Positions 2,023 through 51,859 of a DNA stretch of 64,000 nucleotides are shown here, piece by piece (positions within the stretch are counted from its first letter, which is position 1; the number at the start of each line of letters is the position of its first letter). The DNA is taken from assembly GCA_964490395.1 (NCBI GenBank), contig CAZBAS010000003.1, forward strand, positions 8,636 to 72,635, given 5' to 3'. The translations under genes and the position numbers were made by a program. Source of the stretch: an uncultured Candidatus Saccharibacteria bacterium. Lineage in GTDB: Bacteria > Patescibacteriota > Doudnabacteria > UBA920. The notes below the pieces were generated by a model, which was not told where the DNA came from, did not search any database, and worked only from the letters and a program-made list of their open reading frames with translations.

Positions 2023-3267
2023 CTATTTTGGATAGACGAACCCAGCGACGTCGTCTACGGAAAGGGTGCGGTGGGTTATTTTGTAGAGGCCTTCGTAGTT
2101 CATTTCGGAGATGTTGAAGGTGCCATTGGCGTTCACCGATTCTACGTAGGCAACGTGTCCATAAGGGCCGCCGTACATAACTGCAGCGCTTCCGGCCATA
2201 GGGATTTTACCAGTGCGGTAGCCTGCTGCTGCACCGTTGCGAAGCCATGCTTTGGCGTTGCCGTGGAAGGTAATAACCATTTTCTTTGCTACGTACCAGG
2301 TGCAGTTTCCTTTTACAAAGGAGTTTATAGTTCCTTCTATGTCTGGGATAGAGCTATAGTTTACACCAATGGAACGTTTTGCCGTTGGGGTAGGTGCTAG
2401 TGGTTTTGGTGGAGTTGGTACGGTTCCGTCTGGACACATTACGTACTGACCTGCCTCTACACTGTCCGCACCAGCGAGTCCATTGTAGGAAATAATGCGC
2501 TCTTCCGGGCACTTGAATTTACGGGCAATTCCGGCAATGGTGGTGTCTTCATCGGCTTTGATTAATACTCCTTTGACACTTGGAATAACCAAGAACCAGC
2601 CTGGCTTGATGGTATCGCTGGTCAAGTTGTTTGACCATTTGATGGTGTTTATATCTATATCGTGTTCTTTGGCAATAGACGCTATGGTGTCTCCGGATTT
2701 TGTTTCGTAGACAGTAATTTGGTTGTTGAGCAGAGGTTTAATGCTGTCGAGGGTGCTCGCGGCTAAACCTTCTTTGTCTATGGTGGTAATATTGCTATTT
2801 GTTATAGTTGCACCTGCGACTTCTGTAGTAGGGGTGGGTGCCAGCTGCTCGTCAGCTTGCGCTTCTGGGATAAGGCTGCTTGGTGCAATAGTAGTCGTGG
2901 TGCTAAATAACTTTGTATATAAAGAAACGTTTGTGCGGGCATGCCTCGAAAGGCCAACAGCGAAAAGGCTGTTGTCGTGCTTTGCGAGCGATGCATGGCT
3001 AATCAAAACATTCGCCAAGATGATGATAAGTCCCAGGCCAATAAGAACACACTCATCAGCAAACCTGAGCATGAGCTTTTGCCAGGGCAGTCGGGCAAGT
3101 CTCGTTGCAGGATAGGTGAGGAGGCTATCTACTCCTGCATTCTTAATAACGCCAGCAAGCTGCTGAGCATTCTGTGTAAATTTTTGAGAAAAGCTTTCTG
3201 AATCAGTAGGGCTTTGTGGTTTGAGTCGTTCCACTGATACTTTGTGCTTTGAAGGTATTGGGTTCAA
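2023..3267 (-). CDS. Membrane-anchored peptidoglycan hydrolase with LysM repeats and a C-terminal CHAP domain
   Basis: N-terminal TM helix. LysM-like segments TVYETKSGDTIASIAKEHDIDINTIKWSNNL and DTTIAGIARKFKCPEERIISYNGL. C-terminal CHAP-like region with a Cys/His pair (GNCTWYVAKK...YGHVAYVESV). Confidence 0.7.
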   Translation of the reverse strand: MNPIPSKHKVSVERLKPQSPTDSESFSQKFTQNAQQLAGVIKNAGVDSLLTYPATRLARLPWQKLMLRFADECVLIGLGLIIILANVLISHASLAKHDNSLFAVGLSRHARTNVSLYTKLFSTTTTIAPSSLIPEAQADEQLAPTPTTEVAGATITNSNITTIDKEGLAASTLDSIKPLLNNQITVYETKSGDTIASIAKEHDIDINTIKWSNNLTSDTIKPGWFLVIPSVKGVLIKADEDTTIAGIARKFKCPEERIISYNGLAGADSVEAGQYVMCPDGTVPTPPKPLAPTPTAKRSIGVNYSSIPDIEGTINSFVKGNCTWYVAKKMVITFHGNAKAWLRNGAAAGYRTGKIPMAGSAAVMYGGPYGHVAYVESVNANGTFNISEMNYEGLYKITHRTLSVDDVAGFVYPK

Positions 3268-3759
3268 GGTGGTATTCCGTTTCTCGTACTCTGTCCGGTC
3301 TGTGCTATGGGTAGTCCTGTAATGCTATAAGTACGTATGTTCGTGATGTCCGAGCGTCCTATGCGTTATTCTGTGGGACGTAAGGATAATGTCTGAACAA
3401 GTGAATATGCTGGTCCGCTCAATAATAATTAAAAATTAATATAGATACCGAAGCGAATTGCATGACAAGATTAATTTTATGGGTAGTTAGACCTGCATGC
3501 AAGGCGCGCGGTGGATAAGCGCCAGTTCTAAGTATACTTAAGCTAAAAAAAGTATTTTAGCTCTAATATAAGCACTAAATTGGGTTTTTGCACTTGCATA
3601 TTTTTGGAAACTAGTTTTCAAAAAATGTATTTGAGAACCTGGAATATGCCTGTATACTGTAAAAGCAGCCGCGTGGTCTAGGTATGGTATGTAAGCACAA
3701 GCGGTATATACGTGTATGAGAAGAAGACCTACTGTAGGGCTATGCCTTAACTATTTTTT

Positions 3760-6000
3760 GTGGAATCACGTCTCGATTTAACTATATTGAATAATAGACA
3801 AAGAGAAGCGGTTACTGCGCCACCAGGACCGCTTTTAGTGCTTGCCGGAGCTGGGAGTGGTAAAACTCGGGTACTTGCCTACAGAATTGTCTATATAATA
3901 GAGCAAGGTATGGTTGCCCCGGACCACGTGTTGGCTCTAACCTTTACCAACAAGGCCGCAAAGGAGATGCGGGAGCGAGTGCATACACTGCTTAGCAGTC
4001 AGAATGTAGTAGTCAGTAGTCAGTTTCAGGAACCGACAACCGACAACCGACAACCGACAACTGCTTTACCTACCTTGAGCACCTTTCATAGCCTGGGGGT
4101 AAAAATGCTGAGGCAGCATGGGTATGTTTTAGGACTGCCTAGGGTGTTTGCCATTTTAGATACTGAAGATCAGTTGAAGCTACTAAAAGAGGTCTTTGTG
4201 GCACAGAATATAGATGAGTCCATAAAGCCGCAGGTAGTGCTCCATTTTATCCATGGCATCAAAAATAGCGGTATGGCTGCTGAGGAAGCTGCGGCTGGCC
4301 TTCGGGGGTATATGGCCCAGCAGTTTATTGCGGCGTATTATGGATACCAGGCTGAGTTACATAAACAAGGCAGTGTAGATCTTGATGATCTTATTTTGCT
4401 TCCTGTTAAGTTACTTTCCGAATTCCCTGAAGTGCGGAGTTATTACCAAAACCGTTTTCGATATATTTTAGTTGATGAATACCAAGATACAAACCCTATT
4501 CAATATAAATTTTTACGTCAGTTGTCGCCGCCAGCACCGCTCTTTGTAGTGGGAGATGATGCGCAGAGCATTTATGGATTTAGGGGAAGTGACATTGCCA
4601 ATATCTTGAACTTTGAAAGAGACTTTCCGGAGAGCAAGGTTGTAGTACTAGACCAGAACTATCGTTCCACCCAGAGTATTCTGGCGGTAGCAGACAGAGT
4701 ACTACAGCATAGCGCAGAGCAGAAACCAAAAGTATTATGGACGGAGAACTCTGTGGGTCAAAAAGTGTGGGTGAAAGAACTCTCCAATGAAACTGCAGAA
4801 ACGGATTTTATAGTTGAACATATTATAGCTCTGGCCACCGAGTCGGATGGGGGTGGGGTGGCTGGGGGTGAGACAGAAGAAGTAGAAGATGTTGTTGAGG
4901 AAGATGATCGGCCATTTTCGGTTTTGGACTATATGCTGGGTCAAAAGAAGAGGGGTGCGCATACGGGAGCATCTTTTTCGAGCGCTCGATTGCCTGCTCA
5001 ACACGGGCCGTTGTCCCGGTATGCAGTATTGTATCGAACACATGCACAGTCTCGAGTTTTGGAAGCAGGCCTTCTCGCTGCGGGGATTCCATACAAAATT
5101 GTTGGTGGAGTACGGTTTTTTGACCGAAAAGAAATAAAAGACGCTATAAGCTTTCTCCGGGTGCTGGTAAATGTTCGTGATGGTATAGCGTTGGCAAGGG
5201 CTTTGGGCGTACCCGCAAAGGGTGTGGGGGATAAAACAATAGCATTGGTAAAAGATGTTATATATGGTCAGCACGTAGAGCAGACTACTGAGTGGGGTGT
5301 AACAGAAAATAGTCTCCTTATAGAGCGCGTGCAAGGCGGGCTGGGGGGGTTGCCAAATACAAAAGCCAAGACTGCAGTGGCGGCATTCTTCAGTATGGTA
5401 AGAGGCTGGGCAGCTGTTCCCCTAGATATGCCATTGCATGAATTGCTCCAGCGGATACTAACTGAATCGGGCCTGCTAGCGCACTACAAAGCAGAAGGGG
5501 AGGCGGGTGAGGTGCGGGTGGAAAACCTTCGAGAGCTAATATCGGTGGCACAGAATTTTTCGGCCCAGCCATGGCCACTAGGGCTTGCAGATTTTTTGGA
5601 AGAGGTTGCGCTTATGTCTGACCTGGATACTGTTGCTGACTCAGATGATGCTGTCACGCTTATGACACTCCATGGCGCCAAAGGGCTTGAATTTGATGTA
5701 GTATTTTTTGCGGGACTAGAAGAGGGGCTTTTGCCCCACAGTAGAAGCATGCTGGATCCAAAGGCCTTTGCAGAAGAAGTGCGACTGGCGTATGTAGGTG
5801 TAACTAGGGCGCGCCACGAACTGTATTTAACATATGTGCGTCAGCGAGGTATTTTTGGAGAATCTCGCTTGGCAGTGCCATCCCGTCTGCTTAGGGAGCT
5901 GCCCGAAAGTGCAGTGCAGTGGAAAAGTGGCAGACCAAAATCGTTGCCCGCAAGTAGTATGAATGACGGCGGGGTAGAGTATGAACCTTTTCAAGACTAA
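3760..6000 (+). CDS. pcrA: ATP-dependent DNA helicase PcrA/UvrD family
   Basis: Walker A GAGSGKTRVL, DEYQDTN (motif II), the QNYRST motif, and a C-terminal VTRAR region. Acidic and low-complexity insertions are also present. Confidence 0.85.
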   Translation: MESRLDLTILNNRQREAVTAPPGPLLVLAGAGSGKTRVLAYRIVYIIEQGMVAPDHVLALTFTNKAAKEMRERVHTLLSSQNVVVSSQFQEPTTDNRQPTTALPTLSTFHSLGVKMLRQHGYVLGLPRVFAILDTEDQLKLLKEVFVAQNIDESIKPQVVLHFIHGIKNSGMAAEEAAAGLRGYMAQQFIAAYYGYQAELHKQGSVDLDDLILLPVKLLSEFPEVRSYYQNRFRYILVDEYQDTNPIQYKFLRQLSPPAPLFVVGDDAQSIYGFRGSDIANILNFERDFPESKVVVLDQNYRSTQSILAVADRVLQHSAEQKPKVLWTENSVGQKVWVKELSNETAETDFIVEHIIALATESDGGGVAGGETEEVEDVVEEDDRPFSVLDYMLGQKKRGAHTGASFSSARLPAQHGPLSRYAVLYRTHAQSRVLEAGLLAAGIPYKIVGGVRFFDRKEIKDAISFLRVLVNVRDGIALARALGVPAKGVGDKTIALVKDVIYGQHVEQTTEWGVTENSLLIERVQGGLGGLPNTKAKTAVAAFFSMVRGWAAVPLDMPLHELLQRILTESGLLAHYKAEGEAGEVRVENLRELISVAQNFSAQPWPLGLADFLEEVALMSDLDTVADSDDAVTLMTLHGAKGLEFDVVFFAGLEEGLLPHSRSMLDPKAFAEEVRLAYVGVTRARHELYLTYVRQRGIFGESRLAVPSRLLRELPESAVQWKSGRPKSLPASSMNDGGVEYEPFQD
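4031..4058 (+). repeat. 7-nt microsatellite (AACCGAC)x4 inside pcrA, preceded by (GTAGTCA)x2
   Basis: The tandem heptamer is read directly from the sequence at 4031-4058. It encodes the EPTTDNRQPTT insertion. Confidence 0.8.
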
Positions 6001-6083
6001 GTGGAAAGTTCATAAAGTTCTTAAAGTGTAAAGTAATTCACTTTATGTACTTTCATACTTTATGAACTTTAAGAACTAATACT
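6001..6083 (+). promoter_or_regulatory. Conserved inverted-repeat element upstream of rsmA: GAAAGTTCATAAAGT ... ACTTTATGAACTTTAAGAACT
   Basis: A 14-bp inverted repeat, AAAGTTCATAAAGT and ACTTTATGAACTTT, flanks a TAAAGT-rich core. A near-identical element occurs at 18181-18265. Confidence 0.6.
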
Positions 6084-6938
6084 ATGACTATTGAACAATT
6101 ACAAACTCTCTTACATACGTACCACTTGAGGCCGGATAAAAAGTTTGGTCAGAACTTTTTGCTTGATGACAGTGTCCTGGATAAGATGGTCGATGCGGCG
6201 CAGGTAGGCGCGCAGGATTTAGTTCTGGAAATAGGGCCAGGTATAGGCAATTTGACTCAAAAGTTGTCAGAAAAAGCAGGGGCGGTGTTGGCCGTAGAAA
6301 AGGATCTTCGACTCCAGGAGCTATTGGGTGATTTGGGGAAAAAACATGCGAATATGCATGTAGCGTTTTCAGATGTACTTCATTATGACTTTGCTGCAGC
6401 GCTACAGAAGCTAGCAGGAGACGCTGGGCCGGTCCCCGTTTCGTATAAAGTGGTGGCCAATATACCATATTATGTTACGGGTAAAATAGTTCAAATCTTT
6501 TTGCGCGCACCGAGTAAGCCGCTCAGTATAACTGTGCTCGTACAAAAAGAGGTTGCGGAAAGTATAGTGGCAAAGCCTGGCAACAACAACTTATTGGCAC
6601 TTTCCGTTCAACTTATAGGATCTCCCCGTATTGTGTGTATGGTTCCGGCTACTAGTTTCCATCCTGCTCCAAAAGTGCAGAGCGCTGTGGTGCATATTGA
6701 TATTCCCACGACTGCACCGTATGGTGAGGTTGATGAGAAAGCATTTTTTAGAGTTGCCCGTTCTTGTTTTGCAGGAAAACGAAAACAAATCCACAATACT
6801 TTATCTAACAACTTACGTTTGGCTCCAGATGTTGTAGTTGCTGTGCTCAAAACCGTTGCCATAGCTCCTGCTGCTCGTCCTCAAGATTTGTCCGTTGAGC
6901 AGTTTATAGAATTGTCTCGGGCAATTTCCCAGCTATAG
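6084..6938 (+). CDS. rsmA: 16S rRNA (adenine1518/1519-N6)-dimethyltransferase RsmA/KsgA
   Basis: KKFGQNFLLDD motif and the SAM-binding segment LEIGPGIGNLT. The 284-aa length is typical. Confidence 0.85.
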   Translation: MTIEQLQTLLHTYHLRPDKKFGQNFLLDDSVLDKMVDAAQVGAQDLVLEIGPGIGNLTQKLSEKAGAVLAVEKDLRLQELLGDLGKKHANMHVAFSDVLHYDFAAALQKLAGDAGPVPVSYKVVANIPYYVTGKIVQIFLRAPSKPLSITVLVQKEVAESIVAKPGNNNLLALSVQLIGSPRIVCMVPATSFHPAPKVQSAVVHIDIPTTAPYGEVDEKAFFRVARSCFAGKRKQIHNTLSNNLRLAPDVVVAVLKTVAIAPAARPQDLSVEQFIELSRAISQL

Positions 6939-15894: not shown

Positions 15895-17130
15895 ATGGAA
15901 GAGTCTGAAGTACAACAAATAGCCGAAGAAGCAGATGAGGCCATTGCGGCCTTAGACGTTGCTGCTGCCCGAAATCTACTCAAACAGCTGGACGGTTTTG
16001 GTGTAACCCCAGAACAGGGTGATGCTGCCGGGGTATTGTATAGAGACTTGCTTTTCGTGAGGCTACCACAGCTTGCTGCTCCACAATCGACTTGGCTTTT
16101 GCAACATTGTGTACTTGCTGGTCTTATGTTGCCAGATTTTGATTTATCTGCCCGTATAGTCGATGCTATGTCGATTGTGTTTGATGAAGACGAGCGGGTA
16201 GCGTTGGTAGCTAGGTTTGTGGAAGCAATAGAGCAGGGAACTGAGTTACTCGGCACGAGTAACTTAACTATAGAAGGTGCTGAGTTTCCTCCCACTGTTC
16301 AGTCTTGGATAAAAGATTACAAATTATGGCCCGCACCTTCCCCAGAGCGCAAGGGGTTAGACGAGCTTAATTATGCTAATCAAAGCCCAAACGCCAAGAA
16401 GCTTGACCAGGTTTCACGAAATTCCCTCTTGGGTGTACTTGGTTTGTACGATACGCTTCACAATAGTATTGTTGCTTACAACAATCTTCCGGAAATATAC
16501 GTGGAAGACCATCCGCGCGCAAATTTATCTGCCCTTGCTGCAAGTCCAGACGAATTTGATTCCTTAAAAGCAGCTGATGACGCGTATGTACAAGCAGCGA
16601 AAAGTATTGTGCAAAGTGATAGTATCGCCTATGCGTCTTCGCCAGTAGCGCCACAGAGGGGGTCAGTTGCGCCGGACAGCTTTAGTCCATCCCCAAACAT
16701 ACAGGGCGTGTTGGTGCAAACCCCGTTGGGTGTTTCAGAGAATAGTGGGCTCGACATGGTTGCTCCGACTATTGCTGACGAAGATGATCATGTGCCGACT
16801 TCGAGCATGTCCGTAACGCAACGCAATGATGGTTCAGTCTCTCAAGGTGCTCCTACTATATCTGATGGGTCATTGCCTGTCGCGGCATATGAGGCGCCAG
16901 AAGACTTGTCTCATTCTGCCTCCATTCCAGCGCAGGGTCCTATACGAACAGGTGTGCGACCAGTGCCGTTGGCCACTGCGCCGGTTTCCAAGCTTGTTTC
17001 GCCTATTAAGCTTGCAAAGCCTGTACCGAGTATGGATGAGCTAAAACATGAGGCAGAAGCCAGGCGGGATTCTGTTCAGGCAGACATAGATAGTAAGCTC
17101 AATAGCTTAAAAAAGAAAGCGGGCGAGTAG
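15895..17130 (+). CDS. Hypothetical acidic protein in the T4SS-like locus
   Basis: 411 aa, strongly acidic with a Ser/Pro/Val-rich C-terminus. No known motif. Confidence 0.4.
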   Translation: MEESEVQQIAEEADEAIAALDVAAARNLLKQLDGFGVTPEQGDAAGVLYRDLLFVRLPQLAAPQSTWLLQHCVLAGLMLPDFDLSARIVDAMSIVFDEDERVALVARFVEAIEQGTELLGTSNLTIEGAEFPPTVQSWIKDYKLWPAPSPERKGLDELNYANQSPNAKKLDQVSRNSLLGVLGLYDTLHNSIVAYNNLPEIYVEDHPRANLSALAASPDEFDSLKAADDAYVQAAKSIVQSDSIAYASSPVAPQRGSVAPDSFSPSPNIQGVLVQTPLGVSENSGLDMVAPTIADEDDHVPTSSMSVTQRNDGSVSQGAPTISDGSLPVAAYEAPEDLSHSASIPAQGPIRTGVRPVPLATAPVSKLVSPIKLAKPVPSMDELKHEAEARRDSVQADIDSKLNSLKKKAGE

Positions 17131-17176: not shown

Positions 17177-18166
17177 ATGGTAAATCAATCACAATTAGAA
17201 ACAGTGCGAGAGCTTGTACGTACTTCAAAAAATCTCTCAGACGCAGAGCGTACTGAGTGGCTGGGTTTGCTTGGCTTCATGAACGATAAGCAGCTCTCAG
17301 ATTTATCTGCTATTTTGCAGTCGGCTTCGCCGACCCCAGAACCGCCCAAGGTAATCATACCGGTGAAAGTTATTGCTCCTGAGCAAATAGCAGCACCTGC
17401 AGCAGAGCTGGACCTTCCAGCACCTACGCCTACAAGTCGACCCGCTATACCACCCATTGCAACTCCCCCTCCTGGGGCGAATACTGTTTCAGCTTTCATC
17501 AATCGCAATTTTGCTACAGAGCTTCATCGCACTCCTGTTCCGCCATCTATTCCAGAAGAATCAGCGAAAAAAAACATTTCTACAACACCTGTCCCAGCCC
17601 CGCCTGAATTGATCGTTCCTACACCTCCGGCAAGGTCCGTGAATATGTCGGACATTGCTGCTAAGGCGCCAGCTGCGCCAGCGGCAGAGCCTTTGGCGGC
17701 GCCAAGTGTGAACATTCCTCCAAAGCCAATTGCTGCAACCTTGGCACCAGAACCTGCGGCAATTAGCCTGCCTCAGCGCGCACCCGAGATTGTAACTCCA
17801 CCGACTCCAGAACCTTCAGAAGAAAATGATGCTCTTCCACAAGTAGATGAAGAAGTAGTGGCGCCCCCTAAAAATTTAGAAGATGTACGACGGTTAAATG
17901 TGGCAACGCTCCGGGGTAGGGGTGTGCTTGGCATAGAAACAGAACTTAAAACCTTGTGTCAGAAGTTTGGCTATTTTTCAGTACAATTTGCGCTTGAGCA
18001 CTCGCCGCTCTATCAAACCTATTTAGCAGTAGGTAGTCGTGTGCTCCAGCAGCACCAATCGTTTGAAGGTGTACAGGCTGAGCTTGCTGCAGGAAATAGA
18101 CCATATTTAACTAAGCCTGAATTTGAAGAAATAAATGATTTATTACAGCGCATAAAAAGCGGGTAA
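17177..18166 (+). CDS. Hypothetical Pro/Ala-rich protein in the T4SS-like locus
   Basis: 329 aa with PAPxP-type low-complexity sequence in the middle and a structured C-terminus. Confidence 0.4.
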   Translation: MVNQSQLETVRELVRTSKNLSDAERTEWLGLLGFMNDKQLSDLSAILQSASPTPEPPKVIIPVKVIAPEQIAAPAAELDLPAPTPTSRPAIPPIATPPPGANTVSAFINRNFATELHRTPVPPSIPEESAKKNISTTPVPAPPELIVPTPPARSVNMSDIAAKAPAAPAAEPLAAPSVNIPPKPIAATLAPEPAAISLPQRAPEIVTPPTPEPSEENDALPQVDEEVVAPPKNLEDVRRLNVATLRGRGVLGIETELKTLCQKFGYFSVQFALEHSPLYQTYLAVGSRVLQQHQSFEGVQAELAAGNRPYLTKPEFEEINDLLQRIKSG

Positions 18167-18180
18167 TATGGTATAATTAG

Positions 18181-18265
18181 TACAGTTCGTAAAGTTCATA
18201 AAGTAGAAAGTTCATAAAGTATGACTTTACAAACTTTAAGAACTTTATAAACTTTCAACGTATTC
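18181..18265 (+). promoter_or_regulatory. Second copy of the conserved element (AAAGTTCATAAAGT)x2 ... ACTTTACAAACTTTAAGAACTTT, upstream of the virB3-like gene
   Basis: gtaaagttcataaagtagaaagttcataaagtatgactttacaaactttaagaactttataaacttt matches 6001-6083 closely. Confidence 0.6.
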
Positions 18266-18709
18266 ATGCAGTTTCCCGTTCCACAATTCACCGAAGTAGA
18301 GGATAAAATTATAGGCCCTTTAACTGTTAAGCAGTTTTTTATTTTGCTGCTGACTGGGGGCATTATATTTTTTGCGTATTCTCTCTCTAAAGACTATTAC
18401 GTAACTGGTGCTGCTGGCGTATTGGTTGGCATACCGGGACTTGCCGTGACTTTTGGTCAATTCAATGGAAGGCCTATGTATGTCTCGGTATTCGTTTTTC
18501 TGAATTACTGGACCAGGCCTAAATTTTTTATTTTTCATAAAGAAGCAGAGGGTCATACCACCACTACAGTGAAAAACTTGCAACCAGCGCCAGAGCCCCC
18601 TAAAAAAACAGAACCAGGTGATGACCCTCGTAGTAGACTGCATAGAATTCAGTATCAATTAGAGCAGCGTGCAAGCCAAGAAGCAGAACTGTTGCAGCAG
18701 CGGAAGTGA
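18266..18709 (+). CDS. Small two-TM membrane protein, VirB3/PrgI-like (inferred from position)
   Basis: 147 aa with two adjacent hydrophobic helices. It lies immediately upstream of the VirB4 ORFs, which is the usual VirB3 position. Confidence 0.35.
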   Translation: MQFPVPQFTEVEDKIIGPLTVKQFFILLLTGGIIFFAYSLSKDYYVTGAAGVLVGIPGLAVTFGQFNGRPMYVSVFVFLNYWTRPKFFIFHKEAEGHTTTTVKNLQPAPEPPKKTEPGDDPRSRLHRIQYQLEQRASQEAELLQQRK

Positions 18710-18786
18710 GAATTGTGAATTAAGAATGGCATGATATATTTCTCTCTTAATTCATACTTCATAATTCATAATTCTAGACTTTAGTT

Positions 18787-19494
18787 ATGGCCCTAGAAAT
18801 GCAAAAACCAAATCAGGCAAAAGGAGTATCTACCAACAATGCATTGCGAATTGCAGAAATACGCGATGATATTGTTATTATGCAGGACGGCACGCTACGA
18901 GCAGTCTTGGCCATCTCTTCTACAAACTTCGACTTAAAAAGTGAAGAAGAGCAGAATGGCATTGTCTATGGCTACCAACGCTTTCTCAATTCACTAGATT
19001 TTCCTGTGCAAATTCTCATGCAGAGCAGAAGGTTGGATATTGCAGATTATGTTGGCCGCCTTAAGGTGACTACGAGCCACCTAACCAATGAACTGCTGAA
19101 AATGCAGGCGAGCTATTACATGGACTACATAGCAGAGTTGGTAGCCAGTGCAAATGTAATGAGTAAGAATTTTTACATAGTTGTACCTTTATCTCAAAGT
19201 GTGACCCCTGCTGCGGGCGGGTTTCTTTCCAAAATTTTTGGCGGTGGCGTGGCAAAACAGACAACGCAAAAACTTGATAACTTAAAACATTACTCTGAAC
19301 AGCTCCAGCAGCGCATAGACTCCGTTATGGGCAACTTGTCTGGGGTGGGGCTGCGCATTGTCCGGCTCGATACGGGTGCGCTCATTGAACTTTACTATAA
19401 CTCTTATAACTTTGAGTCGGCGCCTACACTTGATAGCAGTACCCTTGGTGATATAAAAGTAATAAATGCTCCCGGGAGTCCGACGGCCAGTTAA
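18787..19494 (+). CDS. VirB4/TrbE-like ATPase, N-terminal domain fragment (split gene)
   Basis: 235 aa. The motif IVIMQDGTLRAVLAISSTNFDLKSEEEQNGIVYGYQRFLNSLDFPVQIL matches the conserved VirB4 N-terminal region (DG.L.A...G.D....E.E). It ends 35 nt before the ATPase ORF, which starts in a different frame. Confidence 0.5.
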   Translation: MALEMQKPNQAKGVSTNNALRIAEIRDDIVIMQDGTLRAVLAISSTNFDLKSEEEQNGIVYGYQRFLNSLDFPVQILMQSRRLDIADYVGRLKVTTSHLTNELLKMQASYYMDYIAELVASANVMSKNFYIVVPLSQSVTPAAGGFLSKIFGGGVAKQTTQKLDNLKHYSEQLQQRIDSVMGNLSGVGLRIVRLDTGALIELYYNSYNFESAPTLDSSTLGDIKVINAPGSPTAS

Positions 19495-19529
19495 TGCGCC
19501 CTATTTTTTGAAATTGTCTTTACATAGCC

Positions 19530-21380
19530 ATGAGTTTATTCGCAACCAGAACACCCGAGCAAATTGCTCAAGAAAAAGAAAAATTGCAATCTGCAAAATC
19601 TGCGTCCCAGGTTAACAAGCAGGTTGCTGAGCTGGAAAAAATATACCAAGAAGGTGTAACGTCTTTAAAAGATTTACTTTCACCTACGGCGCTTAAGTAC
19701 GAAAGCTCCTATTTTTTGCTGAACGGTAAATACGGTCGCAGTTTTTTTGTGCTTGCGTACCCTCGGTTTCTTTCTACGAACTGGCTTTCGTTTATTATCA
19801 ATTCTGAGGGTGAACTGGACGTATCCATGTTCATTTACCCAATTGATTCCGCAACTATACTGAAAAAGCTCAAGTCTAAAGTTGGTGAAATTGGTTCACA
19901 GCTTAGCATAAACCAAGAAAAAGGAGTTGTGCGAGATCCAATGCTTGAGACGGCGTACCAGGATGTAGAGGGTCTGCGCGACTCGCTCTTACAGGGAACA
20001 GAAAAGTATTTTCGTTTTGCTCTCTATTTCACTATATATGCCGATAACGTCAAAGATTTGGACGAAGCTTCTACGGTGCTGGAGAGTGAGCTCGGAGCAA
20101 AGCTTGTGGTAACAAAACGCGCGCTTATGCAGACTGAGCAAGGGTTCATTTCCACCCTACCCTATGGTCTGGATGAAATGAATATAGGTAACAATCTAAA
20201 TACAAGTCCACTTTCTACAACCTTTCCGTTTGTATCACCCGACCTTACGAGCAATGATGGTATTTTGTATGGTATAAACCGGCACAACAACAGTCTTATT
20301 TTGTTCGACCGGTTTAAGATGGAAAATGCGAATTTTGTGGTATTCGCGAAGTCTGGTGCTGGGAAGTCGTATACGATAAAACTTGAAATTCTGCGTAGCC
20401 TCATGGTTGGTACTGAGGTCTTGGTTATTGATCCAGAAAATGAATACCAACATTTGGCCGAAGCCGTTGGCGGAAGCTTTATAAACATATCCTTGAACTC
20501 TCAGTCCCGTATAAACCCATTTGACCTGCCGCGCGGATTGGAAGGGGAGAGCCAAGAGGACATTATGCGTAGCGCCGTTATTTTTCTGCTCGGTCTCATG
20601 AACCTGATGCTGGGCCAGCTCGATCCGACTGAAGAGGCAATTATGGATAAGGCTATATGGCAAACCTATGCCAAGAAAGATATAACCGTCCAAAGTGATT
20701 TAACCAATGTAGAATTTCCTACCATGGGCGACCTTGTAGAGGTTCTGCAAGGCATGGTGGGCGCAGAGAATTTGTCGCAAAGACTTTCTAAATACACCCA
20801 AGGTACCTTTTCGGGAATATTCGACCAGCAAAGTAACGTTGGCTTGGTCAATAGTTTAGTAGTATTTTCTATTCGCGACCTGGAAGATATACTTCGCCCT
20901 ATTGCCATGTTCGTGCTGGTGAACCATATTTGGAACTTGGTGCGCAGTGAGCTTAAGCGACGCATCTTGGTGCTTGATGAAGCGTGGGTTATGATGCAGC
21001 ATGAAGATAGCGCCCGGTTTATTTTTGGAATTGCAAAACGATGTCGTAAGTATTATTTGGGGCTCACTACCATTACTCAGGACGTAGCTGACTTTATGGC
21101 ATCGCCTTATGGTAAGCCAATTGTAACGAACTCATCTATCCAGCTGCTCTTAAAACAGAGTCCTGCATCTATAAACATAGTCGCAGAAACTTTTTTCTTG
21201 ACCGAAGGCGAAAAATATTTACTCCTTGAAAGCGAAGTTGGGCAAGGGATATTTTTTGCAGGCACGAAACACGCTGCTATTGAGGTTCATGCTTCCTACA
21301 TAGAAGACCAAATTATTACGACCGATCCAAAGCAGCTCATGGAAATAAAAGAACAACAGGCCGCTGCTCCGGCTGTGTAG
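19530..21380 (+). CDS. VirB4/TraC/TrbE-like conjugation/T4SS ATPase (C-terminal RecA-like domain)
   Basis: 616 aa. Walker A FAKSGAGKSYT and Walker B VLDEAWVMM (the DEAW motif is typical of VirB4). Confidence 0.7.
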   Translation: MSLFATRTPEQIAQEKEKLQSAKSASQVNKQVAELEKIYQEGVTSLKDLLSPTALKYESSYFLLNGKYGRSFFVLAYPRFLSTNWLSFIINSEGELDVSMFIYPIDSATILKKLKSKVGEIGSQLSINQEKGVVRDPMLETAYQDVEGLRDSLLQGTEKYFRFALYFTIYADNVKDLDEASTVLESELGAKLVVTKRALMQTEQGFISTLPYGLDEMNIGNNLNTSPLSTTFPFVSPDLTSNDGILYGINRHNNSLILFDRFKMENANFVVFAKSGAGKSYTIKLEILRSLMVGTEVLVIDPENEYQHLAEAVGGSFINISLNSQSRINPFDLPRGLEGESQEDIMRSAVIFLLGLMNLMLGQLDPTEEAIMDKAIWQTYAKKDITVQSDLTNVEFPTMGDLVEVLQGMVGAENLSQRLSKYTQGTFSGIFDQQSNVGLVNSLVVFSIRDLEDILRPIAMFVLVNHIWNLVRSELKRRILVLDEAWVMMQHEDSARFIFGIAKRCRKYYLGLTTITQDVADFMASPYGKPIVTNSSIQLLLKQSPASINIVAETFFLTEGEKYLLLESEVGQGIFFAGTKHAAIEVHASYIEDQIITTDPKQLMEIKEQQAAAPAV

Positions 21381-24090: not shown

Positions 24091-24167
24091 CAGTACTTTT
24101 TGCTCGCTATTCTGAAAAAGGCAAGGTAAACACCGTCAAATAATAAAACCCAAATAACAAAGAAATT

Positions 24168-24201
24168 CTCCGCCCAAGGCGGACCCGCCTCGGGCGGGCA
24201 A
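24168..24201 (+). repeat. GC-rich double-hairpin repeat element (ccgcc-caa-ggcgg a cccgcc-tcg-ggcggg)
   Basis: A second, inverted copy occurs at 30003-30035. Compensatory changes (aa/tc versus ga/tt) preserve the hairpins. Confidence 0.6.
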
Positions 24202-29641: not shown

Positions 29642-29730
29642 TGGCGGAGAGGGGGGGATTCGAACCCCCGAGGCTTTTTACACCTGACGGTTTTCAAGAC
29701 CGTTGCACTAAACCACTATGCGACCTCTCC
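29642..29730 (-). tRNA. tRNA-Ser (anticodon TGA)
   Basis: The reverse complement is GGAGAGGTCGCATAGTGGTTTAGTGCAACGGTCTTGAAAACCGTC...CGGGGGTTCGAATCCCCCCCTCTCCGCCA, with a long variable arm and anticodon loop CTTGAAA. Confidence 0.85.
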
Positions 29731-29991: not shown

Positions 29992-30002
29992 ATATTAGTT
30001 TT

Positions 30003-30068
30003 TCCGCCCGAGGCGGACCCGCCTTGGGCGGGCAAGACCACCGCACTAGACCACTATGCGACCTCTCC
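30003..30068 (-). pseudogene. Truncated tRNA-Ser 5' half (about 37 nt, through the anticodon stem) fused to the GC-rich double-hairpin repeat
   Basis: The reverse complement is GGAGAGGTCGCATAGTGGTCTAGTGCGGTGGTCTTG followed by CCCGCCCAAGGCGGGTCCGCCTCGGGCGG. It matches tRNA-Ser(TGA) only up to the anticodon loop. Confidence 0.6.
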
Positions 30069-31541: not shown

Positions 31542-32135
31542 CTAAATGCGGATATGATTTTTAAGTATAGTACGAAGCTCGGTGAGAGCTCTGAATTGAA
31601 TTATGCGAATATTTCCTTCAGACTTTCTAAGCATATGCGCTATTTCTGCAATTTCGAACCCTTCAAGGAAGCGTAGGCGAATGACTTGTTGTTGCTCAGA
31701 ACTGAGTTTCTCTAGCGCAGTAACAATAACTCGCTGGTCAGATTGTAGTTGCAGTGCATCTATTGCATCGGATTCATGGGCGGCAATATTTTCTGCTTCA
31801 TCAATGCTAACGAGTGGGTTGGCTTTTCGGTAATGATCTATGACGCTATTACGCGCAATTTGGAATATCCAACCGCTGAGTTTTGTGGGTCCACCTTTAA
31901 GGGTAGGAAGCGCGCGAAATACTTTTATAAAAACTTCCTCAGTAATATCTTCTGCGGTTTGTTGGTGGCTCGTGCGATAGTATATAAAGCGGTATATGCG
32001 GTCGAAGTATGCATCGTAGAGCTTACCTAGGGCCGCACTATCACCAATCATCGCCGCATCGAAAACATCAGTCTCTATGGATGGTTCTGATAGTGATTTT
32101 CCTTTTATACTACTAGAGACGAAGGGTATGTTCAT
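31542..32135 (-). CDS. RNA polymerase sigma-70 family (ECF-type) sigma factor
   Basis: Region 2 (DRIYRFIYYRTSHQQTAEDITEEVFIKVF...WIFQIARNSVIDHYRK) and a region 4 helix-turn-helix (RLRFLEGFEIAEIAHMLRKSEGNIRIIQFRAL). Confidence 0.75.
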   Translation of the reverse strand: MNIPFVSSSIKGKSLSEPSIETDVFDAAMIGDSAALGKLYDAYFDRIYRFIYYRTSHQQTAEDITEEVFIKVFRALPTLKGGPTKLSGWIFQIARNSVIDHYRKANPLVSIDEAENIAAHESDAIDALQLQSDQRVIVTALEKLSSEQQQVIRLRFLEGFEIAEIAHMLRKSEGNIRIIQFRALTELRTILKNHIRI

Positions 32136-35845: not shown

Positions 35846-36601
35846 TTAATCTTGTGCCAAAGCTATGCACCACACACTTAGAGCATGGCTTTGTTTCAGC
35901 GCTTTTGCTGCTTCGAGTAGTGTACTACCTGTGGTAGTGACGTCGTCTATAAGCAGTACTACTTTGCCGCCCAAGTCTAGTCCGGGCTGGACCATAAAGC
36001 AGCCTTTGACATTTGCTATGCGCTTGTCTTTCTTCAAATCTTTTTGCGTTTTGGTGGGTCGGGTCCGCACGAGGATGTCTCCGTATGTGAGCGCGAGTGT
36101 ATCCGCAAGGGTTTTTGCCAAAATTTCTGATTGATTATATCCTCGCCAGCGTTTCCGCCTTGTATGGAGGGGTAGAGAAGTAACTACTACGTGCTCTCTA
36201 TTCAGAATGCTCAATTCGCCCTCAAAATGGTGCGCAATGAGTGCGCCATATACTTTGAATACAGAAGGAATAAAATTGTATTTACCAGCAATAATGCTTT
36301 CTGAACAACCAGGACTTTTGTATTGCATTAAGCATAGGGTTCGGTCTGGAGTTAAGGTGTTTTTACAGGGTACGTGAGTAAGTCCAAACGGGCTTGGCTT
36401 TGTGCAGACAATGCACCGCTGTTGCTCTACTAGGTCCATGCGGGCCAGGCAGTTTGTACATATAGGTTCCTTCCACTCTTTTGTACACACAACACACCGT
36501 ACTGGTAGTATTGTATTCAGGACGAAGTTGTATATATCAGTTATAACGGGGTGCATATTGCGGGTCGCAGAATTATGAATCACGAATCGTGAATTAAGCA
36601 A
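35846..36601 (-). CDS. comF: ComF family protein (competence-associated phosphoribosyltransferase-domain protein)
   Basis: N-terminal Cys-rich Zn finger (CVVCTK...CTNC...CIVCTK) and a C-terminal PRTase motif VLLIDDVTTTGSTL. Confidence 0.7.
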   Translation of the reverse strand: MLNSRFVIHNSATRNMHPVITDIYNFVLNTILPVRCVVCTKEWKEPICTNCLARMDLVEQQRCIVCTKPSPFGLTHVPCKNTLTPDRTLCLMQYKSPGCSESIIAGKYNFIPSVFKVYGALIAHHFEGELSILNREHVVVTSLPLHTRRKRWRGYNQSEILAKTLADTLALTYGDILVRTRPTKTQKDLKKDKRIANVKGCFMVQPGLDLGGKVVLLIDDVTTTGSTLLEAAKALKQSHALSVWCIALAQD

Positions 36602-36633: not shown

Positions 36634-39186
36634 CTACGCTGGGACTGCTATGCGGTTTTTTGATTGCTCTATTTCAAAGCTGACAGCGCCGTTGGTAACG
36701 TTTGCAACAATGGTGCTGCCTGGGCCAACATGTGCTTGAATAATTTTTTCTGCGAGCGGGTCCTCTACTAAGGTTTCTATATTTTTGCGAATGAACCGCG
36801 CTCCCTGCATGGGGTCAAAGCTTTGTTCAGAAATAAACTTTGCGAGCTGTGCACTTGGCTTAAAGTGTATTTTCTGTTCTTTCAGTCTTGTCGTAAGTTC
36901 TGTGAGTTGCAAACCGGAGATCTTTCTCAGTTCTTGCATGCCCAGAGGCCTAAATACCAGAACTTTATCTATGCGGTTCACAAATTCTGGCCGGAAGTAC
37001 TGCTTCACTTGTTCTAGCACGCCAGATTTTATGCGTTCGTATTGCTCATCGAGCTCAGCTGGCTTTGGAGCTGCTGATTTTTCTGCTTCCTTGTCCGCAA
37101 AGCCAATTTTCGCTGCCTCACGGGTAAGTTCTTGCATGCCGAGGTTTGACGTCATGATGATGATGGTGTTGCGGAATGAGACTGTTTTGCCTTGGGCGTC
37201 TGTGAGAATGCCGTCTTCCAGGATTTGCAGGAAAATGTTAAAAACATCCGGGTTGGCCTTTTCTATTTCATCGAACAGTACTACTGAATACGGCTTCCGT
37301 CGTACGGCCTCGGTGAGTCGTCCGCCTTCATCATACCCTACGTATCCGGCAGGTGCGCCTACCAGCCTTGAGACATTGTGGCGTTCCATGAATTCAGACA
37401 TATCTACCCGAATGAGCGCGTCCTCATCTTGGAATACTTCGCGGGCAATAACCTTAGCAGTTTCAGTTTTCCCTACACCGGTTGGTCCAAGGAATACAAA
37501 TGAGCCAAGCGGACGCTTTGGATTGTGGAGGCCAGCTCTGGAGCGACGGATGGCTTTCGCTACTTCCGTCACAGCTTCGTCCTGGCCTACTATGTGACCC
37601 TTGAGAGTATCCTCCAAGGAAGAGAGTCGTCCAATTTCCGTTTGGGTAAGTTTGTCCAAAGGGATCTTGGTCATCATGGAAACAGTGTGGGCTATGTGCT
37701 CAGCGGTTATTTCCTGTGTTGGCTTGTCATTTTCTGTCTTAAGCTCTTCTTCTAAGTTCTGTTTTTGCTTAAGCAGAAGGTCCTCTTGGAGTCGCAAGTG
37801 TTCTGCGGTGGCAAAATCACCTTGCCATACTGCCTTGGTCTTTTCTTCTTCAAGACTCACAAGATCCGTTTCCACTTTCTTCTTTTGTCTTAGCACCTTA
37901 GAGTTTTCGGCAAGGCTGCGGAGAAAGGCAGCGGTTTCGTCTACTAGGTCCACTGCTTTGTCGGGAAGGTAGTGGTCTTGTATATAGCGAGTGGAAAGGT
38001 CTACCGCGGCTTTGAGCGCGCCATCGGTTATGGTTACATGATGGTGCTTTTCATAGTTAGGGCGAAGACCTTTGAGTATGGCCATGGCTTCTGCTGGGCT
38101 TGGCTCTTCTACCAGAATAGACTGGAACCTGCGTTCTAGTGCAGAGTCGTGCTCTATGTGTTTTTTGTACTCAGCTAAGGTAGTGGCGCCAATAATGCGA
38201 ATTTCTCCTCGGGCCAGAGCTGGCTTTAAAATGTTTGCCGCATCTAAGCTGCCAGTGGTGGCGCCTGCGCCTACCATGGTGTGCAGCTCATCTATAAAGA
38301 GGATAATATTTGGGTCTGCTTTTACTTCGTCTATAATTTGCTTTAAGCGGTTTTCAAACTCACCTCGGAACATGGACCCTGCTACTACCAGTGCGAGATC
38401 GAGACTGAGAATACGTTTGTCGAGCAGAACATCGGGTACTTCACGCTTGGCTATAGCAAGCGCAAGACCTTCTACTATGGCAGTCTTGCCTACGCCAGCC
38501 TCACCTATGAGTACAGGGTTGTTCTTTGTGCGTCGTGCCAAAATAGACACCATGCGCTCTATTTCGTGCTTGCGGCCAATAACGGGATCAACTTTTCCCT
38601 CGTTAGCCTTTTTGGTAAGGTCAGATGCAAAATACTCGAGCGCATTTCCTTTTTGCGGGACATTTGCTGGCCCACCTTGTGGTGCGTTCGGCATGCTTGA
38701 TGGGGGAGTATCGCCGTTTTCTGCAGGGAAGCGAGAAATGTTTTCAAACACTGCGAGTAGATTGTGCTCTAGCTCGTGACTGTCGCTACCAAGTTTTCGT
38801 AAAATGGTCTTGGCCCGGTTTTCCGGCATGGAAATAAGTCCATAGAGAAAATGCTCAGTACCAATGAATTGGTAGCCGAACTGACTTGCTGCTATGGCGG
38901 CGCGTTCAATGCCAAGCTTAAGGTTTTCCGAAAGGACTGGTTTCCAGCGCTCTATTTTAGAATTTGCATTTGCTGCGTCTATCTCCGGGCGAAGGCGCTC
39001 CAGAGTTATTTGGTTTCGAGTAAGTATTTCTGCGGCAAAAGAGTTTTTTTCCGCAACAATACCGTATAGTAAGTGCTCTGTTCCTATGTGGTCGCATTTG
39101 AGCTCTTCAGAGATCATTTGCGCTGCGATGAGTGCATTCTTGGCGCGAGAGGAAAGGCGCTCTAGTATGAAGTTGAAGTTTGTCAT
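36634..39186 (-). CDS. clpC: AAA+ chaperone ATPase ClpC (Clp/Hsp100 family)
   Basis: Two Clp_N repeats, NBD1 Walker A GEAGVGKTAIVEGLA, NBD2 GPTGVGKTE, and a short middle domain that favours ClpC over ClpB. Confidence 0.8.
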   Translation of the reverse strand: MTNFNFILERLSSRAKNALIAAQMISEELKCDHIGTEHLLYGIVAEKNSFAAEILTRNQITLERLRPEIDAANANSKIERWKPVLSENLKLGIERAAIAASQFGYQFIGTEHFLYGLISMPENRAKTILRKLGSDSHELEHNLLAVFENISRFPAENGDTPPSSMPNAPQGGPANVPQKGNALEYFASDLTKKANEGKVDPVIGRKHEIERMVSILARRTKNNPVLIGEAGVGKTAIVEGLALAIAKREVPDVLLDKRILSLDLALVVAGSMFRGEFENRLKQIIDEVKADPNIILFIDELHTMVGAGATTGSLDAANILKPALARGEIRIIGATTLAEYKKHIEHDSALERRFQSILVEEPSPAEAMAILKGLRPNYEKHHHVTITDGALKAAVDLSTRYIQDHYLPDKAVDLVDETAAFLRSLAENSKVLRQKKKVETDLVSLEEEKTKAVWQGDFATAEHLRLQEDLLLKQKQNLEEELKTENDKPTQEITAEHIAHTVSMMTKIPLDKLTQTEIGRLSSLEDTLKGHIVGQDEAVTEVAKAIRRSRAGLHNPKRPLGSFVFLGPTGVGKTETAKVIAREVFQDEDALIRVDMSEFMERHNVSRLVGAPAGYVGYDEGGRLTEAVRRKPYSVVLFDEIEKANPDVFNIFLQILEDGILTDAQGKTVSFRNTIIIMTSNLGMQELTREAAKIGFADKEAEKSAAPKPAELDEQYERIKSGVLEQVKQYFRPEFVNRIDKVLVFRPLGMQELRKISGLQLTELTTRLKEQKIHFKPSAQLAKFISEQSFDPMQGARFIRKNIETLVEDPLAEKIIQAHVGPGSTIVANVTNGAVSFEIEQSKNRIAVPA

Positions 39187-39487
39187 ATACGAATATGTCC
39201 GATCCGAAACTACGTATGATGCGAATCTACGAATAACTGCAAATGCGGAAAGTTTTGGTATCGTATGTTAAATATACTATTAGCAGTCTATCAATGAGAG
39301 TGATAATTGTCAAATGTCAGAAAGTGAACAGTGGATAGTGAACAGAAAAGCATTTAGTAATTACTTTCCACCGTGCACTAATGCAATGTTACACTTATAG
39401 TATACAGTACTAACTCGTGAATAATTTCTGAAGTTTTCTCTCTTTTCAGTATTCGCTATTCCTTATTCTTAATTCCGCGCCTCACCT

Positions 39488-42007: not shown

Positions 42008-42074
42008 AAACTCGAATATCTAATATCGAAATCCGAAGTAATTTTCAAATTTAAATACTTAATACAAGAATACC

Positions 42075-42440: not shown

Positions 42441-42491
42441 CTATCCTTGATTCGAATTTCGTATTTTAGATATTCGAGTTTGCAGGTGAAG

Positions 42492-47417: not shown

Positions 47418-47898
47418 TAAGCCCTGTCGTGTAGTTTTCGAATTTGCAGATTCGTTTTTCATATGTGCGACTATGTGGGCGCAAGCCGTTTTTTATTTTA
47501 TGAAAAAATAAACCGTCCTCTAGGGGCGCAGGTCTTGGTATTGACTATAAAGTGTTTCGCGTGTAAAATTCTTTTTCGGTCACTTATGGAGTATGAATAT
47601 TCATACTTGCGATCCATTCATTTCCACACCGCTTATTCGTGTGCGCTTTGCTTAAGCAAGCTCCTTCTGAAGCGAGTGCATGAGAAATGTATGATACTTT
47701 ATCTCCGTTTGTACAAATCTAAAAGAGGTGTTTTTACTTGGGCCAGATATTCAGTTCCAGTGCGGACCATCGTAGTGATAAGTTCTGTAATGGACTGAAC
47801 TTGTGGCCGAAGATGCACTTCGGTAATTTGCCTATTTCGTTTGTGAAATATCCGCAATTAACGTAGTAGGCGCCAACCTTATAACCTGGAGGACGAAA

Positions 47899-51774: not shown

Positions 51775-51859
51775 CACTATCCAAATTTACTAATAAGACA
51801 AATCTACGGATGGCTACGGATAAATGCACAAAAACCAATAACCTTAAACAAGATTAGTT

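Follow-up and report, generated by a model that had tools for sequence, protein, structure and literature searches.

Two repeat-armed palindromes in a conserved syntenic block

The DNA under study is a stretch of 64,000 nt from an uncultured Candidatus Saccharibacteria bacterium (assembly GCA_964490395.1, contig CAZBAS010000003.1, positions 8,636 to 72,635; hereafter the window), in which two palindromic elements built from short tandem repeats, designated E1 and E2, stand in the gap between a uvrD/pcrA-like gene and rsmA and in the gap before a prgI/virB3-like gene, respectively. The window, part of a Patescibacteria genome, codes for sortase, LysM-CHAP and CLIPPER-domain proteins and for a PrgI, TrsD-like and VirB4 secretion module, and the nearest named homologues of its PrgI are those of Candidatus Doudnabacteria (58% identity). 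A preliminary description placed the elements before two unrelated operons, rsmA and a virB3/virB4 cluster; comparison with relatives puts both genes in one conserved syntenic block, which comprises uvrD, rsmA, genes for large hypothetical proteins including a VirB6/TrbL-like protein, prgI, a trsD-like gene and virB4, and the reading frame then taken for the N-terminal part of VirB4 is really a separate TrsD/TraC-like gene.

E1 occupies 73 bp (6005-6077) and is separated by 4 nt from the preceding uvrD/pcrA-like stop codon (5998-6000). Its left arm (6005-6034, plus strand) consists of four AAAGT units starting at 6005, 6014, 6023 and 6030, that is, with spacings of 9, 9 and 7 nt and the spacers TCAT, TCTT and GT; a loop of 5 nt (AATTC, 6035-6039) separates it from a right arm (6040-6077) of four ACTTT units starting at 6040, 6049, 6057 and 6066, to which a half unit ACT (6075-6077) is added. 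This right arm is G-poor and includes AACTTTAAGAA. The ATG of rsmA, whose product matches Pfam RrnaAD, lies at 6084, 13 nt past the last full unit, and is not preceded by a Shine-Dalgarno sequence. A promoter scan found no promoter-like site in E1, and rsmA is thus probably co-transcribed with uvrD.

E2 has the same plan and occupies 74 bp (18182-18255). Its left arm (18182-18220, plus strand) opens with a degenerate ACAGT at 18182 and continues with AAAGT units starting at 18191, 18200, 18207 and 18216 (spacings 9, 9, 7 and 9 nt), the loop is the 3-nt ATG at 18221-18223, and the right arm (18224-18255) contains four ACTTT units starting at 18224, 18233, 18242 and 18251, with AACTTTAAGAA again just 5' of the start codon. 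The preceding gene stops at 18164-18166, and the ATG of prgI at 18266, also without a Shine-Dalgarno sequence, follows E2 after 10 nt. Directly 3' of the upstream stop codon stands an extended -10 promoter, TGGTATAAT (18169-18177, plus strand), from which a transcription start is predicted at about 18184, the first paired base of the E2 hairpin. Across the window, start codons have almost no Shine-Dalgarno sequence, and the recognizable promoters are of this extended -10 type (TGnTATAMT), with no clear -35 and at 20-50 nt 5' of the ATG; a match to it was found within neither E1 nor E2, only just 5' of E2. The promoter scan also returned TTTACA-16-TAAACT within E2.

The sequence statements of the preliminary description hold, and the observation itself is confirmed as real and highly non-random. 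AAAGTTCATAAAGT, described as present once in E1 and twice in E2, occurs exactly at 6005 (plus), 6057 (minus), 18191 (plus) and 18207 (plus); the shared 21-mer lies at 6057-6077 and 18224-18244 (90% identical); both elements do end close to a start codon, as the distances above show; and the perfect 14-bp inverted repeat exists as 6005-6018 and 6057-6070, so that only the limits given for it, 6004-6074, were slightly loose. The pattern AAAGT-N4-AAAGT matches 10 times in the window against 0.26 expected, nine of the ten matches falling within the two elements, and the 14-mer matches 12 times with up to two mismatches against 0.79 expected. The divergent order, ACTTT units followed by AAAGT units, was not found in the window.

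Conservation and turnover in relatives

The close strains represented by loci L206 and L207 (UvrD 95% and RsmA 98.6% identical) keep E1 with five changes. Three are substitutions in spacers; of the other two, one inserts 2 nt and so lengthens the 7-nt unit to 9 nt, and one removes the T of the terminal half unit. None of the five falls in the eight cores (P about 0.02 by our own calculation). In L206 the 2-nt indel and two T-to-G changes together give a helix of 16 bp with three G.U pairs in the sense RNA, for which a folding energy of -31.4 kcal/mol is predicted, against -25.1 kcal/mol for the sense RNA in the window; the antisense value is -20.7 kcal/mol. The array is absent from the genus-level relatives L122 and L124 (UvrD 82%, RsmA 67-70% identical), in which the uvrD-rsmA gap measures only 31-33 nt.

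For the secretion genes, 18266-21380 was compared with loci L209, L213, L217, L122 and L124. The core proteins of the secretion system show 91-99% identity among these genus-level relatives (VirB4 97-99%, the TrsD-like protein 95-96%, the VirB6-like core 95%), and the proteins encoded next to them only 37-70% (RsmA 67-70%, the gene at 15895 37%). Five prgI leaders have in common the stop codon, the promoter TA(A/G)TGGTATAAT and ATGCAGTTTCC, and differ in the intervening 80-125 nt. An AAAGT element is present in L209, L210 and L212 and decayed in L217; L213 instead carries an unrelated palindrome on ATTCGTATAT/ATATAC, and L124 another unrelated one, CGAATCTACGGATAC/GTATCCGTAGGTTCG, with one G.U pair. 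Compared with E2, L209 has 3 changed positions out of 42 in the right arm and about 8 out of 44 in the left, one of them in a core; in all, one of about nine changes affects a core (P about 0.003, again our own calculation). Because L209 belongs to the same assembly as L122 (GCA_964648985.1), that genome has E2 and lacks E1. Four of the five leaders fold as one hairpin from the predicted start (z = -4.75, -4.2, -3.4 and -6.3), and L217 gives z = -1.35.

The extended -10 is conserved in four relatives (L209, L213, L124 and L217) and lies upstream of E2, which makes it the likely promoter of prgI; E2, suggested earlier to be itself a promoter, would then be the 5' untranslated region (UTR) of the transcript.

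A dispersed class of intergenic elements

We scanned a collection holding one genome per species for AAAGT-N4-AAAGT, a gap of 0-30 nt and ACTTT-N4-ACTTT, and obtained at least 119 matching stretches. The matches listed include at least 41 Patescibacteria assemblies from many classes, among them Saccharibacteria and Zambryski-, Nomura-, Roizman-, Gottesman-, Magasaniki-, Falkow-, Peri- and Berkelbacteria. Most of the other matches listed are from Bacteroidota, and there is also a type from Planctomycetota, whose units include GCCTAAAGT and GAGCTAAAGT. E1 and E2 are copies of a dispersed, seemingly undescribed class of intergenic elements, in which n (T)AAAGT units of 7-9 nt are followed by a short loop and n ACTTT(A) units. 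The Patescibacteria unit has the consensus (G/A)T(T/C)(T/C)AT-AAAGT-(T/C), and the arms contain 2-13 units spaced, in 250 cases, by 9 nt (158), 7 nt (58), 8 nt (33) or 10 nt (1). Convergent arrangements far outnumber divergent ones in these loci (52 versus 2, or 11 versus 2 once one seed match per locus is removed), and 10 one-armed, orphan arrays occur. Scans of viral collections returned mostly simple 2+2 palindromes (72 convergent and 25 divergent stretches) and only three extended arrays. A literature search of limited reach found no description of such elements.

The position of the elements relative to genes is strongly biased. They lie in short gaps between co-directional genes, 0-10 nt past a stop codon, with the last unit mostly 10-16 nt before an ATG; for 17 of 34 elements the start of a reading frame is found 5-25 nt outside an arm, compared with 11.7% of random positions, and the earlier suggestion of a small positioned repeat family is thus upheld, its architecture recurring in many genomes. 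Positions inside operons, such as ribosomal-protein operons, occur, and several elements separate neighbouring tRNA genes, leaving about 12 nt on either side. The genes 3' of the elements, named by eye from N-terminal sequences, include rplF, rpsC, rplB, obg, nusB, mreB, pth, nrdR, dnaB and rnhB, unrelated housekeeping genes that do not make up a regulon. A recognizable promoter is near only about a quarter of the elements, and promoters were found 5' of, inside or 3' of the arrays. The 64-kb window contains two copies, and loci with one copy contain further ones at roughly one per 15-30 kb. Cores are reused within genomes, as in E1 and E2 here, in the four AAGT-type copies each of L012 and L058, and in L135, in which a different core, TAGCTT, occurs twice. 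In the distant class Zambryskibacteria, an AAGT-type element stands 11 nt 5' of the prgI homologue of locus L021, and the next intergenic gap there contains an orphan array of four AAAGT units (6854-6883) that puts AAAGU beside the AUG.

A wider survey used 80 metagenome loci gathered via a TrsD-like homologue, which yielded 72 prgI upstream regions, 59 of them non-redundant. AAAGT arrays are present in almost none of the 72, and many of the gaps contain other tandem arrays with a period of 7-9 nt, often convergent palindromes on a different core: TAGCTT/AAGCTA (the core found twice in L135), AGTAAG/CTTACT, ACAAAT/ATTTGT, GAAATT/AATTTC and ACAAC/GTTGT. AAAGT is thus one flavour of a general architecture, and whatever the flavour, complementary cores are always present in both arms.

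Other short repeats also precede genes in the window. The TTCATAA core of the elements had been reported to recur at 18740-18775, ahead of the trsD-like gene; repeats do exist at 18746-18775 (plus), and they form a separate family of 7-bp direct repeats (AATTCAT/ATTCGTG) rather than the core of E1 and E2. A second set lies at 36569-36598 (minus). Both run in the same orientation and stop 11-12 nt short of a start codon, which belongs in the first case to the trsD-like gene (18787) and in the second to a comFC-like gene. The leaders are almost G-free, and the same heptads (ATTCATA) precede prgI in metagenome locus L178 (about 3250-3290). Further short-repeat leaders with TTCGNAT- or CTACGGAT-type words, at 39187-39240, 42008-42074, 42441-42491, 47430-47462 and 51801-51825, precede clpB, an M48 peptidase gene, the gene of a 23S-IVS-like protein, an unannotated gene (47463-47798) and a DsbA-like gene; words of the CTACGGAT type are also found in the L124 palindrome that stands in place of E2. 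In addition, the uvrD/pcrA-like reading frame (3760-6000) contains an in-frame palindrome at about 4003-4067 with a 7-nt period (AGTAGTC 2.4 times, AACCGAC 4.4 times, outermost AGCAGT/ACTGCT). This insert is wholly different in L206 (CAAACGT three times, then ACGTTTG) between near-identical flanks and differs again in L124 and L122, so that the site is hypervariable.

Comparison with known elements

E1 and E2 fold as long hairpins (z about -4 to -5). Against Rfam, only tRNAs reach the gathering threshold in the window, and under permissive settings the two elements give chance matches to microRNA-hairpin models far below threshold. They do not resemble intrinsic terminators: no terminator-like site was found in either, their stems are A/U-rich and no T run follows, whereas ordinary terminators occur elsewhere in the window. 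A miniature inverted-repeat transposable element (MITE) is also rejected. The only candidate for a target-site duplication, ACTAA at 5995-5999 and 6075-6079 around E1, has its right copy in the terminal unit and is lost in L206; E2 has no flanking duplication, and in no locus does a pair of arrays enclose a reading frame. An origin of transfer for the secretion system was rejected on finding the same arrays beside housekeeping genes elsewhere, a DNA uptake sequence since the copies, few in number, come in arrays and not as scattered single sites, and a phase-variable simple repeat because the units are non-identical and the differences between strains are substitutions and a 2-nt indel rather than gains or losses of units. 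LytTR-type sites consist of two 9-bp direct repeats about 12 bp apart; AAAGTTCAT fits their loose 9-mer consensus, but the units here are contiguous, with a period of 7-9 bp, and also inverted.

The proposal that the elements are a shared operator or promoter for both operons is not supported. The same arrays precede unrelated housekeeping genes and tRNA genes in other genomes, the spacing of 7, 8 or 9 bp varies even between strains and does not suit phased binding to double-stranded DNA, and the comparison with related genomes shows the rsmA copy absent from genus-level relatives and the prgI element replaced while its promoter is kept. With unrelated genes 3' of it and such turnover in relatives, a regulon-specific operator was rejected. 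A promoter recognized by an extracytoplasmic function (ECF) sigma factor (GAAC...CGT) was likewise rejected: E2 contains GAAC-15 nt-CGT, and E1 lacks the CGT.

Among known systems, the closest likeness is to the repetitive extragenic palindromes (REP) and the mosaic elements built from them (BIME) of Enterobacteria and Pseudomonas, dispersed, genome-specific imperfect palindromes that are transcribed as stem-loops and affect the stability of mRNA segments. The elements described here share with them the short gaps between co-directional genes, including gaps inside operons. REPs, however, are single palindromes of 20-40 bp with a GTAG or CGTC head and a RAYT transposase, whereas our elements measure 55-110 bp and have arms in which 3-13 units of 7-9 bp follow one another in tandem, the pentamer of each unit being conserved and the spacer free. 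The GTAG/CGTC head is not found in E1 and E2, whose ends read GTGG-AAAGT and TACAGT, and no RAYT (Y1 transposase) is present among the approximately 40 window proteins scanned.

A second likeness is to the 5'-terminal stem-loops of the E. coli ompA and the Bacillus subtilis aprE and ermC leaders, which stabilize mRNA by blocking 5'-end-dependent decay; similarly, E2 and its replacements in relatives start a hairpin at the predicted first transcribed nucleotide. Those stabilizers are short, unique hairpins followed by a Shine-Dalgarno sequence, whereas the structures here are 70-120 nt long, repeat-built and dispersed, and lead to an AUG without one. The arrays bound by omega (pSM19035), ParG and MetJ are comparable in their contiguous 7-8 bp units, direct and inverted, beside promoters and with a short specified core; they need a fixed register, are confined to a single plasmid or regulon and lie near a ribbon-helix-helix gene, whereas here the period is 7, 8 or 9 bp and the targets are unrelated. 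A ribbon-helix-helix domain was not found among the same window proteins, a scan that did not extend to small open reading frames (ORFs). Rickettsia palindromic elements (RPE) are selfish palindromic repeats of a reduced symbiont genome, intergenic and also in-frame within ORFs, to which the uvrD insert at 4003-4067 may be compared; RPE copies share a consensus of 100-150 bp, whereas here only a core of 5-6 nt and the architecture are common.

Finally, the right-arm units, (A/G)AACTTTA, with AACTTTAAGAA just 5' of the start codon in both elements, resemble the epsilon translational enhancer of the T7 gene 10 leader (TTAACTTTA). Epsilon is a single copy beside a strong Shine-Dalgarno sequence, whereas four tandem copies stand here, with a complementary arm and no Shine-Dalgarno sequence, and we treat the resemblance as a lead only. 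TTAACTTTA has been used as a translational enhancer (PMC10011478).

A tentative reading as transcribed stem-loops

From the anatomy, distribution, gene-relative position, promoter conservation, turnover and core-versus-spacer conservation described above, we infer a transcription start, a folded RNA and a function as follows. The reading that we favour, tentatively and at somewhat less than an even chance, is that E1 and E2 belong to a REP-like family of repeat-armed palindromes that are transcribed as stem-loops, 5'-terminal in the case of E2 and intercistronic in the case of E1, and that affect RNA stability and ribosome access. They would act as transcribed cis elements and not as an operator. 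E2 would form nearly the whole 5' UTR of the prgI-trsD-virB4 mRNA and fold as one long A/U-rich stem-loop from the predicted 5' end to about 12 nt before an AUG without a Shine-Dalgarno sequence, and E1 would be an intercistronic stem-loop in a uvrD-rsmA co-transcript. Such structures may protect an RNA end or segment in the manner of 5'-terminal stabilizer hairpins and REP elements, and may control the access of ribosomes, for which the G-poor 3' arm, resembling A/U-rich enhancers of the T7 epsilon type, could be relevant. Each genome has its own core flavours, AAAGT being one. The repeat-built arms and the fast turnover suggest local duplication and slippage, or else a mobilizing activity, as the source of the family and of its replacement. 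Long perfect palindromes are unstable in bacteria, and what survives may therefore be palindromes that are interrupted, perfect only over short cores and mismatched in the spacers.

The complementary cores of the two arms, the long hairpin that orthologous prgI leaders retain on unrelated sequence and the helix gained in L206 speak for a nucleic-acid structure. Several observations weigh against the stem-loop reading. Covariation between the arms is not seen: of 89 mirrored spacer pairs in 54 elements, 3 are exactly complementary, compared with 11 of 191 non-mirrored pairs, and unit lengths coincide at 38 of 89 mirrored positions, which is about chance. Folding favours the antisense strand in 22 of 32 oriented elements and the sense strand in 9, and E2 itself gives -21.2 kcal/mol in the sense and -26.3 kcal/mol in the antisense orientation. 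Arrays of direct repeats alone occur in the same slots (6854-6883 in L021, 18746-18775 in the window), so a hairpin is no universal requirement, and in L021 an extended -10 lies inside the loop, so that only the right arm would be transcribed from that promoter. The reuse of one core across the loci of a genome is not explained by a model based purely on structure. Most prgI genes in the wider Patescibacteria, moreover, leave no room for a leader (the gap is below 40 nt in 33 of 59), and with a fixed 90-nt window only 4 of 17 longer gaps fold significantly.

Alternative readings

The alternatives do not all exclude one another. Somewhat unlikely, in our estimate, is that the elements are functionless selfish or mutational DNA, either REP-, RPE- or MITE-like palindromes or products of slippage and template switching, which would have spread into what little permissive space a compact genome offers and be tolerated there. 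Their presence or absence at orthologous sites (E1 missing from L122 and L124, while the L122 genome keeps E2 in L209), the different flavours in the same slot of relatives, the copies within ribosomal-protein operons and tRNA clusters and the replacement of the in-frame uvrD palindrome in L206, as with Rickettsia palindromic elements, would all follow from it. Tolerated DNA, however, would not be expected to have cores under purifying selection relative to spacers, or a right arm, that of E2, nearly invariant between genomes whose neighbouring proteins are 37-70% identical, or an AAGT-type element before prgI in a class as distant as Zambryskibacteria. In addition, neither a target-site duplication, nor a terminal inverted repeat distinct from the array, nor a transposase was seen, and the copies within a genome are not near-identical, unlike those of recent transposition.

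It is unlikely that the (T)AAAGT unit is the DNA site of a small oligomerizing protein, such as a ribbon-helix-helix protein of the omega, ParG or MetJ kind, which would repress or insulate a neighbouring promoter. Conserved cores with drifting spacers, both between strains and across phyla, speak for protein binding, as do the reuse of a core at several loci of one genome and the prevalence of convergent over divergent arrays; direct-only arrays, promoters on either side of or inside arrays and arm complementarity that is not maintained also fit it. The fixed register of ribbon-helix-helix binding, on the other hand, is broken by units of 7, 8 and 9 bp within one array and by the switch from 7 to 9 between strains. 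The targets, unrelated housekeeping genes, operon-internal gaps and tRNA spacers, are no more favourable to it than the scarcity of recognizable promoters near the elements, and a core swapped at the same site in genus-level relatives would require these genomes of about 1 Mb to exchange the regulator along with it. The only regulator-like protein among the window proteins scanned, small ORFs being outside the scan, is an ECF sigma factor (31542-32135, minus), encoded next to a DUF5666/5667 protein.

Two further readings place recognition on single-stranded RNA. It is quite unlikely, in our judgement, that the elements represent a general, hitherto undescribed class of cis elements in Patescibacteria and some Bacteroidota and Planctomycetota, in which lineage-specific arrays of a pentamer with 2-4 free nt in between, mostly accompanied by a complementary array, would replace the Shine-Dalgarno sequence as multivalent single-strand docks, for example for the multi-OB-fold ribosomal protein bS1 or a ring-shaped RNA binder, with the opposite arm as anti-enhancer. 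The narrower proposal for the elements themselves, that pentamers 2-4 nt apart form a multivalent dock for bS1, the ACUUU units then serving as tandem epsilon-type enhancers instead of a Shine-Dalgarno sequence, or for a TRAP-like ring protein, and that the complementary arm acts as anti-enhancer, is very doubtful. Flexible spacers between invariant pentamers are typical of single-strand binders, the G-poor right arm ends 10-16 nt before AUGs without a Shine-Dalgarno sequence and is the better conserved arm of E2, and AACTTTAAGAA, present in both elements, recalls the enhancer use of TTAACTTTA; yet elements between tRNA genes cannot serve translation, the orphan array of L021 places AAAGU and not ACUUU beside the AUG, and other genomes have unrelated cores.

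That the right arm is a promoter giving leaderless or near-leaderless transcripts, through overlapping -35-like TTTACA and -10-like TAAACT or an ECF-type GAAC...CGT, is highly improbable: the TTTACA-16-TAAACT of E2, the roughly constant 10-16 nt to ORF starts and about 12 nt to mature tRNA 5' ends, and the ECF sigma factor gene speak for it, but E1 has neither a promoter-like site nor a CGT motif, the clear promoters of this genome are TGnTATAMT with leaders of 20-50 nt, one of them just 5' of E2, and a promoter in the mirror-image arm would direct antisense transcription of the upstream gene.

To our knowledge, almost nothing is known about the control of gene expression in ultrasmall Patescibacteria, which have few regulators. 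A dispersed and quickly evolving family with its place 3' of a stop codon or promoter and 5' of the following start codon may be a means of post-transcriptional control or else a novel type of selfish DNA in reduced genomes, and one of its copies fronts type IV secretion genes, which have been reported to be essential for epibiotic growth (preprint 10.1101/2025.01.22.634366). Genetic tools exist for one Saccharibacterium (PMC10633639). Even if they are merely tolerated junk, the elements mark hot spots of very rapid turnover, one of them inside a helicase gene.

Other features of the window

A G+C-rich twin hairpin, CCGCCCRAGGCGGACCCGCCTYGGGCGG, is present in two 92%-identical copies at 24166-24201 and 30000-30035. 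Similar twin hairpins were found in unrelated Patescibacteria, within the AAAGT elements of L032 and L101 and before prgI in L134 and L164. The second copy in the window adjoins a duplication of the 5' part of tRNA-Ser(tga) (29642-29730), which recurs at 30033-30068, 338 nt away and 89% identical, and looks like an integration scar or the remnant of an attachment site. A CIRCE-like inverted repeat, TTAGCAGTC-N9-GAGTGATAA, lies at 39280-39306, about 100 nt 5' of the clpB-like gene (36634-39186, minus), and suggests heat-shock control of the HrcA type.

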